This document shows positions 54,048-59,918 of a DNA stretch of 64,000 bases, in pieces (the stretch's first letter is position 1; every line of letters starts with the position of its first letter). The notes beneath the pieces are model-generated. The model was given only the letters and a program-made list of their open reading frames with translations. It had not been told where the DNA came from and ran no database searches. A program made the position numbers and the translations under genes. Source of the DNA: Escherichia coli (GTDB lineage: Bacteria; Pseudomonadota; Gammaproteobacteria; Enterobacterales; Enterobacteriaceae); the NCBI RefSeq assembly GCF_030013205.1, contig NZ_CP122648.1; one strand, 5' to 3'.

Positions 54048-54614
54048 TTATTTGACCAGCTCAGGTGTTACCTGACTCACCGCATTGGTGTAGTAAGGCG
54101 CGCCCCAGCCTGGTTCCGGCCAGAATGCACCATAGCCGTAATCCCACAGGTTATAGGTGGTATTAACCATTTCTCTCAAATGCCACACCTGAATGCCCTG
54201 CATATTCACTTCCAGGAAGTTATACGGGACTTTATTGATAAAGCCAGGTTGTTCACCCTGAATGGTACCGAGGATGGTAACAAAGTGATTACGATAGTTC
54301 ACTGGATCAAGGAAGCCGCTTTGTCTGGCGAGCAGTCGGCCCTGATAGTTGGCTTCAATATCAGGCTTCGCATAGCTATCCAACGGTAATACAGCGATTT
54401 CTAACAACGTATCCGTTTTGCCATTGATAACGTTGATAACCTTCCCACCAAAGCGCGCTTGTTGACCAACATATAACCCCGGCTGGTTATGAACAGCAAC
54501 AAAACTTTTTTGAATATCAGGTTGGTTATTGCCTTTGATATTTTGCGGAATTGAACTACATGCGGCAAGCAAAAATGAAAGGCTGAGGATGAGTGCACCT
54601 TTTGTCATGTTCAT
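54048..54614 (-). CDS. slp: starvation/acid-inducible outer-membrane lipoprotein
   Basis: 188-aa product from the internal ATG (MNMTKGALILSLSFLLAACSS, lipobox LAAC) within ORF 54048..54833. Confidence 0.88.
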   Translation of the reverse strand: MNMTKGALILSLSFLLAACSSIPQNIKGNNQPDIQKSFVAVHNQPGLYVGQQARFGGKVINVINGKTDTLLEIAVLPLDSYAKPDIEANYQGRLLARQSGFLDPVNYRNHFVTILGTIQGEQPGFINKVPYNFLEVNMQGIQVWHLREMVNTTYNLWDYGYGAFWPEPGWGAPYYTNAVSQVTPELVK

Positions 54615-54858
54615 GTTACTATCCTTATCAACAAATATTAAAACCATAATAGATATTTCTTTATAGTTTTCATCTGATTCTGAGGCGATATGCCTGATAG
54701 TAACGTAAACCTGTCTGATGTTTATATCCCTTCTGTTTAGTTTAATTCTGTTAATTTTGGGGCGTGACATGAGTATCCATCGCCCCATAAAATAGCCTTT
54801 TTTTAAAGGTACATAAAATCTATTTTTATTCAATGATTATAAAGTGCTAATGTTCATA

Positions 54859-56082
54859 TTATGGGATTATATTCTGGTAATGATTTGATAAGCGAATTCT
54901 TTTGCCAGATGGTGTTTCTATTTCCACCCCATAATTTATAGTTTTTTCATCAGGTAGCGATCTCTTTAAATAAGGTGCGTATGACATTTTTTTTGGGTTA
55001 AGCGTCTCGTATTGAAATACTTCGAATTGATATTCAGACATTTCTGCCCATGTTTGAATTTTATTGTATCGGGGTAGTGTCGTAAAGGCTTTAACTTGCT
55101 TATAACATTGTTTTTTGAATTCTTGCTGATATTTTAATATGTCATTGTATGAAATATTGGTTATCCTGGCCTCTAAGAATTTAATTATTGTCGAAGCAAT
55201 TTCCGCTTTTGCTCGTAAAAAGTTGTCATTAATGGTTAATAATGTTGAAAATAAACCTTCGATTTGTTTGTCAAGATATTGTTCGTCTTTATATAATTTT
55301 GGGGTAGGGTGTTCTTTATGTGAAAAAATAGTGTCACCTAAATTTGCGTCAGTGAAATTTATATTAAGTAGATCTTCGAAATAAAACCTTGACAAGGTTA
55401 GAACGAACCCGGACAGGTTCTGTCCTGTCATATTGAAATCAATAAAGTTGGTTCCGGCAAAGACTTTCATCCTGTTTTTATTTTCACTGTGTTCAATATA
55501 TAACTTCGTCATTTTTTGATACAGGCTTTGAATATCTTTTATATTAGTCGGTAAGTCAGCTCGTTGTTCAGCAATAAAATTAGTATCTGAAAATATGGTT
55601 TGGACACTGAATGTTATGGGTATTCCCTCTTCTACGCTAATTTTAGTTATGATTGCCTTGTCGGGTTTAGGATTAGCGACAACAATGATTCGACATTCAG
55701 CACTTTTGTTCTTTTCGTATCTAATGTTATTAATTTGATTAAGTAGTCCCTGTGCCTGCCGCGTAAGTGGTGTCGAACTTATCGATTCAATGTTAGTAAT
55801 AAGACTTACAAGTTGAGCCACAACTTTTGAGTAGTCTGCATTTGTATATGTGGTGTTCGTGTGGCACGCATTAATTTGTTGGAGTTGTTGTTGCGCTAAA
55901 TCAAATTGTTCAGCGTTATATCCTTCTTCAGACAATGAAAAATTAATGGGTTGCTGTTCTTCCTGATTATCACAAGGCCACATCGGTGTGTCTGGTGTTT
56001 TAACATTGTCGGTATCTGTTGTGCGGTTATAAATATCGCCGTGATATGTATTTATCATACCTGGGGTAAAGTCAATTGACAT
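54859..56082 (-). CDS. yhiS: hypothetical protein, YhiS-like, apparently intact
   Basis: 407-aa uninterrupted ORF in an AT-rich segment; assigned from position between slp and the ars genes; function unknown. Confidence 0.6.
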
Positions 56083-56662
56083 AACATTCCTTATTGTTCA
56101 TCTATTTCGCTAAATTTTTGTAAATCGGAGAATTAGAGCAGGAATGGATTTTCTTCTACGCGGAAATAAACACAATGCGTCATATCTTCCTGATATAATT
56201 ATCTTTAACTTCCCTTTCATTTCCACCCGGTAATATTTGTGTATAAAAAAAGGGCAGTGATAGTATCGTAAAGGAAAACGTTAACAACTATCAAAAAGCG
56301 CTCATTTTAAAAAGTTATGATGTTCACCGATAGTGTGTGAAGTGATATTTTTGTGATGTTTTAGATGTGTAATAATGAACCAGGTTAAAGTGTATTTAAA
56401 AATGTGTTGTATTGGCGACTGAAATCTGCCCTTTAAAAGGGGGGATAGCACTGAAACAAAGAGACATTGCTTCTCCGATAAAATGTCAGAGAAGCATGAT
56501 TGCGTGGTGATTGTCGATTGATGACTTACTGACGGATCCGTCATCATTCTCAAAGCATTAGTTAAGTTATTTGTGATTTTTAAGGATTATCCTATCTATG
56601 ATTTTCTACTCAGAAGGATAAGGCACTCACAATGCTCCTTATAGTTTACTGCTGGCATCTAT

Positions 56663-57676
56663 TTAAAATAGCATTTGAGTCAAATAGCCCATCAAGATAG
56701 CCATACCTAATATAACCGTCAGGAATGCAACTATCATCGGTATTCTGAACATTGATTTAAGTAATATCACTTCCGTCAGACTTGCGCCGGCACTGCCGAT
56801 GATTAATGCCATTAATGCCCCCAGACCCATGCCTTTCGTCATCAGAACTGATGCCAGAGGGATAACCGCCTCTGCCCGGATATATAGCGGAATACCGACA
56901 ACGGCGCTCAATGGGATGGCGAAGGGATTATCTGCCCCTGCATGAGCGGCAATCCACTCTGAGGGAATAAAGCCATAAATAAAAGAGCCTATTAATACCC
57001 CTAACAAAAGATATGGCAGTACATCTTTAAACTGTTGCAACGCATCTTTGGTGGCTAGTTTTATGGGATTAATACTTACCACAGCTTTGGTACTGCAACA
57101 GTTTACTACAGGTTTCTCAATGGCTTTAGCCGCTGGACTACAGCAACTCACTTTTATTGGCGTATATGTCGTCCCCGGCGAAGTTTTGGCTGGAGCACAA
57201 CAATTTGCTGATGAGCTTTTACTGGCAATGATATGACGTTCAAATCCCAGGGAATCCAGGATAATACTGGCAAGTACGGAGACGCCGGCGGCGATAATCG
57301 CGTACAACAAGGTAACTTTCCAGCCAAAGGTCACCCACATTAACCCGACGATAATGGGATTAAGTAATGGGGAAACAAATAAAAAAGTGAGGGTCGGACC
57401 GAACCCGGCTTTCGCTGACAACAATCCACGTAACATTGGGATTGTCGAGCAACTACAGAACGGGGTAACGGCTCCCAACAGAGCCGCCAGGAGATAGCCT
57501 CTCCCTTTTCTGGCCCCCATCATCTGCCGGATTTTATGGTCTGGCACCTTTTGTCTTATCAGGCTCACACCGGCACTAATCACTATAAACAGCAAAGAAA
57601 GCTCAACGGCGAGAAACACAAACATCTCTGCGGCATCTTGCAGCATCGCAAGCCAACTACTCATACGTAACCTCAT
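56663..57676 (-). CDS. ArsP/DUF318-family permease with TPFCSCS motif and cysteine-rich loop (putative organoarsenical or metal(loid) efflux permease)
   Basis: 337-aa polytopic ORF containing GAVTPFCSCSTIP, which I recall as the ArsP signature, plus a central CC-rich segment (NCCAPAK...VSCCSPAAK...VNCCSTK). Confidence 0.7.
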   Translation of the reverse strand: MRLRMSSWLAMLQDAAEMFVFLAVELSLLFIVISAGVSLIRQKVPDHKIRQMMGARKGRGYLLAALLGAVTPFCSCSTIPMLRGLLSAKAGFGPTLTFLFVSPLLNPIIVGLMWVTFGWKVTLLYAIIAAGVSVLASIILDSLGFERHIIASKSSSANCCAPAKTSPGTTYTPIKVSCCSPAAKAIEKPVVNCCSTKAVVSINPIKLATKDALQQFKDVLPYLLLGVLIGSFIYGFIPSEWIAAHAGADNPFAIPLSAVVGIPLYIRAEAVIPLASVLMTKGMGLGALMALIIGSAGASLTEVILLKSMFRIPMIVAFLTVILGMAILMGYLTQMLF

Positions 57677-57771
57677 TGAATAAATCTATATTTCCAGAAT
57701 AATCGAAATGAAATTCAGATCAAGATATTTCTGGTATTATCGAAATATCAACCAGACAAAGGGGGTGTCAT

Positions 57772-58068
57772 ATGCAGTTGGAAGAAGTTGCTAAAGCGCT
57801 GAAAGAGCTAGGTCACCCGAGCCGTTTGTTCATATTCAAACACCTGGTCAAAGCGGGGGAACAAGGTTTGCCCGTCGGTGAGTTGCAAAAGCAGCTTGGG
57901 ATACCCGGCTCTACACTCAGTCACCATATTTCAGCACTGGTATCGGTAGGGCTGGTCAAACAAAACCGTGAGAGTCGAACGCTGATGTGTGTTTCGCAAT
58001 ACGCAATGCTGGAAGCGATAATTGAATTCTTACGCGAGGAGTGCTGCGTAAATAGCAAAATTGCCTGA
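57772..58068 (+). CDS. ArsR/SmtB-family metalloregulatory transcriptional repressor
   Basis: 98 aa with winged-HTH core (GELQKQLGIPGSTLSHHISALVSVGLV) and a C-terminal cysteine pair (EECCVN); divergent from the permease gene. Confidence 0.7.
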   Translation: MQLEEVAKALKELGHPSRLFIFKHLVKAGEQGLPVGELQKQLGIPGSTLSHHISALVSVGLVKQNRESRTLMCVSQYAMLEAIIEFLREECCVNSKIA

Positions 58069-58190
58069 TGCGCTACGCGCTACAGATTTCATGCCATGCA
58101 CGGTTTTGTAGGTCGGATAAGACGCGTTAGCGTCGCATCCGACATAAACAAAGCGCACTTTACCAACTATGGGCAGTGGATATCGCCGCT

Positions 58191-58616
58191 TTATTTCAAG
58201 CGTTTACCCGCTTCATCAACCACTTTCTCGCCATCTTCCTTGGTGAACGCGCCTTGTTGCGCATCTGGCAGAATTTCCAGCACGACTTCTGAAGGGCGGC
58301 ACAGGCGAGTTCCCAACGGCGTCACCACAATCGGGCGATTAATCAGAATCGGGTGCTGAAGCATAAAGTCGATTAACCGATCGTCAGTAAATTTATCTTC
58401 TGCAAGGCCCAGTTCCTCATACGGCTCGACGTTTTTACGCAGCAGCGCGCGTACGGAAATCCCCATATCGGCAATGAGTTTGACCAGTTCATCACGCGTC
58501 GGTGGGGTTTCCAGATAATAGACGATGGTCGGTTCTGTACCGCTGTTGCGGATCATCTCCAGCGTATTACGCGACGTACCGCAGGCCGGGTTGTGATAAA
58601 TGGTAATGTTGCTCAT
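58191..58616 (-). CDS. arsC: arsenate reductase (glutaredoxin-coupled)
   Basis: 141 aa; catalytic cysteine context YHNPACGTSRN. Confidence 0.93.
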   Translation of the reverse strand: MSNITIYHNPACGTSRNTLEMIRNSGTEPTIVYYLETPPTRDELVKLIADMGISVRALLRKNVEPYEELGLAEDKFTDDRLIDFMLQHPILINRPIVVTPLGTRLCRPSEVVLEILPDAQQGAFTKEDGEKVVDEAGKRLK

Positions 58617-58628
58617 ATCAATATCTCA

Positions 58629-59918
58629 TTACAAAGTGAAAGAGAGACGTAGCGCCAGCGCAGCCAGCGTCACAAACAGCACCGGCAGGGTCATGATAAT
58701 CCCTGTACGGAAGTAATATCCCCAGCTGATAGTTATATTCTTCTGCGAAAGTACGTGCAGCCATAGTAGCGTTGCCAGGCTACCAATCGGGGTAATTTTC
58801 GGCCCCAAATCGCAGCCAATTACGTTGGCATAAACCATCGCTTCTTTGATAACGCCAGATGCCGTGCTGCCATCAATGGACAACGCGCCAACCAGTACCG
58901 TCGGCATATTGTTCATAATAGAAGAGAGGAAGGCGGTGAGGAATCCGGTGCCGAGCGTCGCGGCCCACAGGCCATTATCCGCCAGCACGTTGAGTACGCC
59001 AGAAAGATATTCCGTTAGTCCGGCATTGCGCAGGCCATAAACCACCAGATACATGCCGAGCGAGAAGATGACAATCTGCCAGGGCGCACCGCGCAGGACT
59101 TTACCCGTATTAATTGCATGACCGCGTTTAGCGACGGCAAATAATATCAGCGCGCCCACTGCCGCAATGGCGCTGACCGGAATGCCGAGCGGTTCCAGGA
59201 CGAAAAATCCCACCAGCAGAAACAGTAAAACAACCCAGCCAGTTTTGAAGGTGGCAGGATCTTTAATCGCTTCTGCGGGAGATTTCAGCAGCGCCATATC
59301 GTAGTTCTGCGGAATATCTTTGCGGAAATAGAGATGCAACATCACCAGCGTGGCAACAATCGCGGCGATATCCACCGGCACCATCACCGAGGCATATTCG
59401 CGAAAGCCGAGGCCAAAGAAATCTGCGGAAACGATATTCACCAGGTTGGAGACAATAAGCGGCAGGCTGGCGGTATCGGCAATGAACCCGGCCGCCATCA
59501 CGAACGCAAGCGTCGTGCCTTTACTGAACCCTAAAGCCAGCAGCATGGCGATGACAATCGGTGTCAAAATAAGCGCCGCGCCATCATTGGCAAACAGAGC
59601 TGCAACGGCAGCACCGAGCAGGACAATCCAGGTAAACAGCAAGCGACCGCGTCCATTGCCCCAGCGTGAGACGTGCAGCGCCGCCCATTCAAAAAAGCCG
59701 GACTCATCCAGCAGCAGGCTGATGATAATGACGGCAATAAACGCCGCCGTCGCGTTCCAGACGATATTCCACACCACCGGAATATCACCCGGATGTACCA
59801 CGCCCGTAACTAACGCCAGTACTGCGCCAAGCGTTGCACTCCAGCCGATGCCTAAACCTTTCGGCTGCCAGATAACCAATACGATGGTCAGGACAAAGAT
59901 AGCGCCTGCCAGTAACAT
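58629..59918 (-). CDS. arsB: arsenite/antimonite efflux pump
   Basis: 429-aa product from the internal ATG ([10 protein letters not shown]...) within ORF 58629..59939. Confidence 0.9.

Follow-up and report, generated by a model that had tools for sequence, protein, structure and literature searches.

Intact yhiS of Escherichia coli: a pentapeptide-repeat orphan gene with ORF-confined mosaic diversity and recurrent loss

Is yhiS of Escherichia coli a real protein-coding gene, and if so, of what kind, and in what state does it persist across the species? The usual view dismisses it as a K-12 pseudogene or as an 'unknown gene' bordering the acid-fitness island. The stretch of E. coli DNA analysed here (the window; 64,000 nucleotides of contig NZ_CP122648.1, assembly GCF_030013205.1) carries an uninterrupted copy as an open reading frame (ORF) of 407 codons, preceded by a well-placed ribosome-binding site:

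54859..56082, minus strand: yhiS coding sequence (CDS), 407 amino acids (aa), intact (ORF listing, K-12 synteny, homologues, and the ratio of non-synonymous to synonymous substitution rates, dN/dS)
56087..56092, minus strand: Shine-Dalgarno sequence AAGGAA, 4 bases before the ATG at 56082 (sequence read)

The ORF starts with ATG and has zero internal stops in the six-frame ORF listing of the window, and the start context, ATAAGGAATGTT-ATG, is unchanged in an alignment of eight strains. Downstream of yhiS and on the same strand lies slp (true CDS 54048-54614), with dctR further on; upstream lies a permease of 337 aa (56663-57676, minus strand) whose orthologues carry the Pfam family ArsP_1, followed by a small ArsR/SmtB gene and then by arsC and arsB. 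The gene order slp-dctR / yhiS / ars is the same in K-12, O157 and eight other strains. Positions 54700-56401 of the window (query positions 1-1702) align to K-12 JM83 with 92.8% nucleotide identity, interrupted by the insertion sequence (IS) IS5, which cuts the JM83 gene into two annotated pseudogene fragments. The window gene is the uninterrupted orthologue of the K-12 b3504 pseudogene (yhiS) and of EDL933 Z4907. An initial annotation, made from the sequence alone, had described an intact 407-aa yhiS ORF between slp and an ArsP-like gene, with an IS5-disrupted counterpart in K-12. The ORF listing, the good ribosome-binding site and the lack of an internal stop confirm the first part of this description, gene order and K-12 synteny the second, and the two pseudogene fragments of JM83 the third.

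The aa identity of full-length homologues spans 97% to 62%; each is 407 aa long except the most divergent, at 410 aa. Codon alignments were made of the window copy against eight alleles fetched with their flanks. The dN/dS of yhiS was 0.32-0.47 against the window copy and 0.27-0.62 over all allele pairs; the 97.5% bootstrap bounds did not exceed 0.71, so that every interval lies below 1, and no region of the gene had a dN/dS above 1. The only indels among intact alleles, in a set of 28 nucleotide sequences, are of +12 and -3 nucleotides, both in-frame. That an AT-rich frame of 1.2 kb has been kept open across a silent divergence of 0.65 is not expected by chance and argues that yhiS is a real coding gene. 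The neighbouring genes have dN/dS values of 0.04-0.12 against 0.3-0.5 for yhiS, which is 5-10 times higher. Taken together, the alignments indicate that yhiS is, or recently was, protein-coding under relaxed purifying selection.

YhiS is a predicted soluble protein of about 47 kDa, a description in part shown and in part deduced. No signal peptide or membrane segment was found, the maximum 19-residue Kyte-Doolittle hydropathy being 0.99 and the N-terminus being hydrophilic, rich in Ser, Thr, Ile and Asn, and lacking Leu. The centre of the protein is repetitive:

55318..55467, minus strand: pentapeptide-repeat segment, ten units, residues 206-255 (periodicity, profile searches)

Leu, Phe or Met occupies each fifth residue from 208 to 253, a run of ten that was reached in 0 of 20000 shuffles (maximum 8), and Asp or Asn stands at the position preceding the central Leu/Phe/Met in six of the ten units, giving an A(D/N)LXX-like pattern. 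A YhiS profile was built from 11 alleles and searched against 1.84 billion cluster representatives. It matched one full-length cluster, its fragments, and then large proteins through residues ~200-280 only, the latter with library-wide E values from 6.6e-9 (best) to 7e-4; all ten of the large-protein matches that were checked are strong pentapeptide proteins (PF00805 E 1e-36 to 1e-91). A profile search of the PDB gave Rfr23 (2f3l) with an E value of 0.0054, and the other generic matches included TL15 (3n90) and QnrB1 (2xtw); single-sequence and profile searches of the PDB returned generic pentapeptide proteins only. Residues 206-255 also have the lowest dN/dS in the gene (omega 0.28).

The protein had been thought to contain no recognisable motifs, a view overturned by the ten repeats that the profile search and the periodicity test locate at residues 206-255. 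The remote-homology search and structure prediction proposed at the same time gave a divided answer: the profile finds the pentapeptide core, but the flanking domains are without relatives and AlphaFold returned a predicted local distance difference test score (pLDDT) of ~40. No relatives of the N-terminal 200 or the C-terminal 150 residues were detected among the 1.84 billion cluster representatives, and searches of Pfam, NCBIfam, PADLOC and PHROGs gave nothing beyond a sub-threshold pentapeptide signal. Clear homology to a characterised housekeeping protein, which would have spoken against the initial annotation, was not found in Pfam, NCBIfam, the PDB or the cluster representatives. The ten repeats would make up ~2.5 turns of a right-handed quadrilateral beta-helix, a fold proposed from the sequence; both AlphaFold runs gave failing pLDDT. 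A Foldseek search of the PDB with the full-length, low-confidence model gave no match with E <= 0.001, and AlphaFold placed a beta-hairpin, at low confidence, at the C-terminal tail.

The alleles of yhiS are far more divergent than the genes around them. In a sliding-window comparison the divergence is confined to the ORF, with identities of 0.72-0.91 inside 54860-56080, 0.95-1.00 in slp and dctR, and 0.91-1.00 in the leader (0.77-0.84 in the most divergent strain). slp lies 244 bp from yhiS, and the interval between them forms the edge of the peak:

54615..54858, minus strand: yhiS-slp intergenic region and slp promoter region, right-hand edge of the divergence peak

Across 54615-54858 identity climbs from 0.73-0.98 (inside the ORF) through 0.87-0.99 and 0.94-0.99 to 1.00. 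The gene-by-gene values were as follows.

Nucleotide identity, window versus the most divergent strain (L008):
chuA: 98.4%
chuS: 99.3%
dctR: 99.4%
slp: 99.1%
yhiS: 77.0%
arsC: 92.7%
arsB: 95.7%

Silent divergence (dS), window versus eight strains:
yhiS: 0.08-0.65
slp: 0.025-0.06
dctR: 0-0.115
permease: 0.065-0.17
arsC: 0.08-0.32

The arsC and arsB identities show that the diversity peak fades leftwards into the ars operon and stops abruptly before slp. The silent divergence of arsC (58191-58616; arsB follows at 58629-59918) is itself unusually high between E. coli strains.

The yhiS alleles are also mosaics. Typing in 150-nucleotide segments revealed blocks that are shared among alleles in differing combinations, the four-gamete test on 28 alleles fails for 31% of the informative pairs of sites, and an identical -1 frameshift is found on four different 5' backgrounds. 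Nucleotide diversity (pi) is 0.059 in 20 evenly sampled genomes and 0.087 in the 28 alleles. The class of alleles with 76% identity occurs in strains without the chu island and the K-12 allele (92.8% nucleotide identity) also comes from a chu-less strain, so that the allele classes are not a simple reflection of the clonal frame. A tenfold excess of silent divergence over a gene 244 bp away cannot come from relaxed constraint alone; the divergence peak may reflect old alleles maintained by selection, repeated import from unsampled lineages, or a locally raised mutation rate.

In 30 complete genomes spaced evenly down the search ranking of E. coli genomes, the state of yhiS was read from the sequences:

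Intact 407-aa ORF: 12/30
-1 frameshift, 281 aa: 6/30
+1 frameshift, 327 aa: 2/30
A-tract loss, 371 aa (O157:H7): 1/30
Early stop at codon 105: 1/30
IS element inside the ORF (IS5 in K-12, IS1A): 2/30
Large deletion, ~380 bp left: 5/30 (two read directly)
Gene replaced by IS1: 1/30

The intact fraction is thus 40% (Wilson 95% interval ~25-58%), and one of the intact copies has an IS1 at 214 bp upstream of its start. The -1 frameshift lies at alignment column 772 and the +1 frameshift at column 978. With at least seven kinds of lesion in 18 of the 30 genomes, yhiS has been lost repeatedly and independently, and an intact copy such as that of the window is neither rare nor universal. A K-12 yhiS deletion strain has no chlorhexidine phenotype (PMC8170033). 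Insertion sequences recur in the AT-rich yhiS locus as a whole (L001, L002, L005, L034, L035 and L036): IS5 and IS1A were seen inside the ORF and IS1 and IS1203 in the leader, one IS1 replaces yhiS, and another lies in the permease.

One lesion bears on how the gene is annotated, as it shortens the protein near its C-terminus:

54987..54994, minus strand: A8 homopolymer tract, codons P363-K-K-M366, recurrent frameshift site
54862..54984, minus strand: C-terminal tail, residues 367-407, conserved, lost in the 371-aa forms

Loss of one A from the tract gives 371-aa forms on several allele backgrounds, ending in …KKCH(T/A)(H/R)LI, and one extra A accounts for the forms P0048 and P0105, as inferred from their protein frames. 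The tract reads CCCCA6 in O157:H7 and CCCA7 in strain ST865, and in some intact alleles it is broken by substitution (CCCCA7) with the frame kept. The last 36 residues are nearly invariant in all alleles, including the 62%-identity one, and this near-invariance of the C-terminal end indicates that the 407-aa frame is the ancestral, conserved one. In E. coli O139:H1 P15-25, a sequence 100% identical to the window copy is labelled 'hypothetical protein, frameshifted' by the RefSeq Prokaryotic Genome Annotation Pipeline (PGAP), and two further sampled strains with an uninterrupted 407-codon ORF carry the 'frameshifted' label; the mislabelled intact copies are L002 (NZ_CP080233.1), L017 and L026. 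The PGAP gene model ends exactly where the 371-aa protein of O157:H7 (WP_001303709.1) has its stop codon. The 'frameshifted' label is an annotation artefact, which arises because PGAP evidently scores the gene against the truncated O157 form, and the mislabelling looks systematic, with many genomes affected.

yhiS and its leader stand out in base composition. The GC fraction is 0.29-0.39 over ~54500-56700 and 0.45-0.55 on either side; the ORF itself has a GC of 0.345 and a GC at third codon positions (GC3) of 0.306, compared with a GC3 of 0.48-0.57 in slp, arsC and the permease. The strong AT-richness that had been noted for the ORF and about 580 bp of upstream non-coding DNA is evident in this GC profile. 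The leader contains two elements:

56083..56662, minus strand: AT-rich non-coding leader, from the permease stop to the yhiS start, GC 0.34-0.37
56468..56496, minus strand: GC-rich hairpin, 11-bp stem TGCTTCTCTGA…TCGGAGAAGCA, terminator-like match, identical in 8/8 strains

The leader is better conserved than the ORF (508 of 581 columns invariant in eight strains). Its sole sizeable ORF, of 83 aa with a TTG start, is broken in three of the eight strains, in agreement with the earlier description of this DNA as non-coding. No RNA family in Rfam matched the leader, and a simple sigma-70 promoter scan gave 13 sites against 10.2 +/- 3.5 expected from composition-matched shuffles, which is no enrichment; the leader probably holds the yhiS promoter or promoters. 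The hairpin lies ~170 nucleotides 3' of the permease stop codon, stays unchanged while the bases around it vary, and probably serves as the permease terminator. The part of the window leader common with K-12 is limited to 316 bp (56083-56398), at 88% identity. Beyond this point lies a 1.6-kb presence/absence polymorphism (56399-57998) that comprises the ArsP-type permease and most of the 98-aa ArsR/SmtB regulator (57772-58068, plus strand); K-12 has ~100 bp of unrelated DNA at the site, and the module is also absent in O157:H7, strain C and others.

Literature on K-12 connects the locus to the nucleoid proteins H-NS and StpA and so lends indirect support to the H-NS silencing suggested in the initial annotation. 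The K-12 arsC/yhiS and insH11/slp intergenic regions are among 78 'promoter islands' listed by Panyukov and Ozoline (2013, PMC3661553, Table 1); both are marked as H-NS-bound, for arsC/yhiS in every chromatin immunoprecipitation (ChIP) data set that was compared, and the genes associated with the two islands are predicted to be foreign (PMC3661553). A separate study lists yhiS with the high-affinity sites at which StpA/H-NS hold chromatin structures (bioRxiv 10.64898/2026.02.10.705075), and over-expression of YdeO did not induce yhiS although a YdeO binding site lies nearby (PMC4222967). A literature search found no functional study of yhiS or Z4907.

A search of 5.8 billion proteins gave 136 matches, every one in E. 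coli or Shigella, and the locus is at the same place in 5418 of 5426 complete E. coli genomes, with most copies at 80-95% nucleotide identity. A scan of 100,044 species-representative genomes returned only one 409-bp contaminant contig, a weak negative since the scan missed E. coli's own representative. That contig (L003, NZ_SRXN01000179.1) has low coverage, is assigned to Ensifer sp. MPMI2T and encodes the YhiS C-terminus at 90% identity; it is almost certainly E. coli contamination. Searches of plasmids and phages with tblastn gave no true plasmid copy and no phage match. Three matches filed as plasmids (PLSDB NZ_CP134663.1, NZ_CP141089.1 and NZ_OL790696.1; H31-H33) are misfiled E. coli chromosomes of 4.8-4.9 Mb. 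The flanks of yhiS hold no direct or inverted repeats suggesting a mobile element, and no tRNA or mobility genes.

The AT-richness had been taken as a sign that the segment was horizontally acquired, which these data do not demonstrate: no donor was found, no mobility gene or repeat, and no plasmid or phage copy, and the position is fixed species-wide. Since 5418 of 5426 genomes share the position of the locus, any acquisition would predate the diversification of E. coli. Any transfer would thus be ancient, and an origin in situ as an orphan gene is no less plausible. yhiS sits on the arsenic-operon side of the acid-fitness island, which is specific to E. coli/Shigella, and its composition and taxonomic range give it the look of the island's outermost gene; one genomic study places it, as an 'unknown gene', just outside the border (PMC9729726).

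The explanation that accounts best for these observations, and which we put forward tentatively, is that yhiS encodes a dispensable, probably H-NS-silenced protein-interaction factor in patchy decay. The ten-repeat pentapeptide unit is embedded between orphan N- and C-terminal domains, and its short beta-helix would most likely serve as a rigid protein-protein interaction surface; for DNA mimicry of the Qnr/MfpA kind the helix would be far too short. H-NS and StpA on the AT-rich body and leader probably keep yhiS transcriptionally quiet, to judge from the K-12 ChIP literature. Selection is weak and patchy, with relaxed purifying selection where the gene is intact and independent destruction by frameshift, nonsense mutation, IS or deletion elsewhere, and the very old recombining allele classes within the ORF suggest a variable partner or repeated import of alleles. 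Several observations weigh against this explanation. A useless, drifting gene could also have a dN/dS of 0.3-0.5 and be lost in 60% of genomes, and the 30-genome sample is small and drawn from a database skewed towards clinical clones. The Pfam scores of the repeats are below threshold (PF00805 12.7 bits against a cut-off of 20.2; PF13599 7.8 against 38), and AlphaFold2, run on the 11-allele alignment, reached a pLDDT of 39.5 on the whole protein and of 40.6 on residues 196-407, with no beta-helix modelled. Tajima's D is -0.43 in the 20 evenly sampled genomes, so that intermediate-frequency variants are not in excess. The H-NS data were obtained in K-12, which has a broken yhiS and shares only part of the leader.

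A drifting gene is the substance of the next explanation, under which yhiS is a decaying relic, once functional and now neutral in E. coli, and the window copy has simply not yet been hit. The inactivating lesions of at least seven kinds in 18 of 30 genomes speak for this, as do a dN/dS 5-10 times that of the neighbours (0.3-0.5 against 0.04-0.12), the lack of a reported phenotype in K-12 studies (PMC8170033) and an H-NS-bound, transcriptionally poor region (PMC3661553). However, dN/dS is significantly below 1 in every comparison, a 1224-nucleotide ORF at 34% GC has stayed open across alleles with dS up to 0.65 and with in-frame indels only, the pentapeptide core and C-terminal tail are selectively conserved, and neutral drift cannot account for silent sites that diverge 10-20 times as much as those of slp, 244 bp off; a relic is unlikely on balance. 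The divergence peak could instead reflect long-term balancing or diversifying selection, with ancient recombining alleles tracking a variable outside partner and gene loss as an alternative escape. Phages, competitors or, were the protein secreted, host factors are candidates for this partner, and if true this would add a cytoplasmic-looking orphan to the hypervariable loci of E. coli, which include flagellin, O-antigen, fimbrial and restriction genes; we regard such selection as unlikely. Another proposal is that yhiS is a conflict gene, acting in phage exclusion or inter-strain competition, whose diversity and loss are driven by an arms race. Hyperdivergent mosaic alleles confined to the ORF, frequent loss and the position of an AT-rich gene beside a variable indel region are what it would lead one to expect. 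Yet three divergent alleles gave no PADLOC (E <= 1) or PHROGs match, the gene stands singly with no recognisable enzymatic or sensor domain, its locus is the same in 99.9% of genomes, unlike a turnover hotspot in which one cargo stands in for another, and no region has a dN/dS above 1, all of which makes a conflict gene very unlikely.

The combination of pentapeptide repeats with AT-richness and restriction to Escherichia brings to mind the type III effectors EspX, PipB2 and SopA, and for this reason YhiS was compared with them. It would then be a type III effector-like, EspX-comparable protein, an orphan substrate of the locus of enterocyte effacement (LEE) system or of the decayed E. coli type III secretion system 2 (ETT2), decaying along with ETT2, and would contact a host target through its beta-helix and helical C-terminus. 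ETT2 reportedly combines near-universal presence with widespread mutational attrition, a pattern that yhiS resembles. EspX1 (Sakai ECs_0025) is Escherichia-restricted, of similar size, and has a sub-threshold Pentapeptide_4 score of 18.2 bits against a cut-off of 38; BLASTP of YhiS against EspX1 gave two weak colinear matches, one at the end of the repeats (E 0.092) and one at the start of the C-terminal helical region against GVFKTLASIDDK (E 0.057). The hydrophilic, Leu-free N-terminus rich in Ser, Thr, Ile and Asn would also suit an effector, but its composition is that of the whole AT-rich protein and hence carries no weight. hhalign gave YhiS and EspX1 a probability of only 0.6-0.9%, no Pfam or NCBIfam effector family matched, no SopA, NleL or PipB2 chain was among the PDB matches, and in O157:H7, where the LEE system works, the protein is the truncated one of 371 aa. 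Homology to EspX1 was rejected, with a best BLASTP E of 0.057 and an hhalign probability below 1%, and membership of the EspX/PipB2/SopA group is unsupported in view of that probability and of the missing effector structure and NCBIfam matches; an effector is accordingly a quite improbable identity for YhiS. The A8 tract could make yhiS a phase-variable contingency gene, in which slippage switches between full-length and truncated protein. The tract does lie inside the ORF and shows -1 and +1 length changes on several allele backgrounds. A tract of eight is short, however, for high-frequency switching in mismatch-repair-proficient E. coli, intact alleles with the substituted tract (CCCCA7) keep the frame, and most inactivating lesions are elsewhere (columns 772 and 978, IS insertions, deletions), so that phase variation is highly improbable. 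Least credible of all is a Qnr/MfpA-type DNA mimic that protects topoisomerase. It draws on weak similarity (E ~3) between the repeats and QnrB1 in the PDB profile search, in matches that are generic to the repeats; YhiS has ten repeats (~2.5 coils) only and is 85% non-repeat, whereas Qnr and MfpA consist almost wholly of repeats (QnrB1, 217 aa).

Databases already list YhiS as an uncharacterised hypothetical protein. What is added here is the pentapeptide core, the evidence of coding constraint, the cause of the 'frameshifted' labels, and the ORF-confined mosaic diversity with recurrent loss. The finding alone alters the understanding of no pathway, and what merits further work is the diversity peak. 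With an ancestral 407-aa frame that holds a pentapeptide core, is kept by roughly 40% of sampled genomes and is far more diverse than its surroundings, yhiS is a concrete candidate for work on orphan genes, on H-NS-silenced DNA and on diversity specific to single loci in E. coli; in practical terms, the annotation fix is simple and yhiS could serve as a high-resolution typing marker.

Two further observations concern the neighbouring DNA. The mechanical ORF of slp (54048-54833, minus strand) over-extends to a TTG and a length of 261 aa, the annotated lipoprotein being 188 aa long, beginning MNMTKG… and occupying 54048-54614; the over-extension is repeated in two metagenome gene calls. Between the ArsR-like gene and arsC, positions 58111-58149 have a sub-threshold Rfam match of the naRNA4/REP type (29.7 bits against a gathering threshold of 59.5) and are probably a repetitive extragenic palindromic (REP) element.

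Compared with known systems, YhiS resembles the pentapeptide family (PF00805/PF13599; 2f3l, 3n90, 2xtw) in its ten tandem units and in a profile-level match to established members, but the repeats take up only 50 of its 407 residues and its flanking domains are without relatives. EspX1 (ECs_0025, 473 aa), an AT-rich backbone gene present in most strains, is like YhiS in having a degenerate pentapeptide segment followed by a helical C-terminus; its E. coli alleles are at least 89% identical (a 69% form comes from E. albertii), whereas those of yhiS fall to 62% within E. coli. The window leader shares its AT-richness with the 'promoter islands' (PMC3661553) and differs in that its sigma-70 sites are at the level set by composition and only 316 bp are common to K-12 and the window. 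Z4907 of O157:H7 (WP_001303709.1) is an orthologue at the same position with ~94% nucleotide identity over the shared part, and differs in being 371 aa long, with one A lost at codons 363-366 and the 41-residue tail missing. K-12 yhiS (b3504, UniProt P37635) occupies the same locus, but IS5 interrupts its ORF, giving an IS-derived end after 260 codons, its 3' fragment is also frameshifted, and the 1.6-kb ArsP/ArsR-like module is missing beside it, whereas the window copy is uninterrupted.

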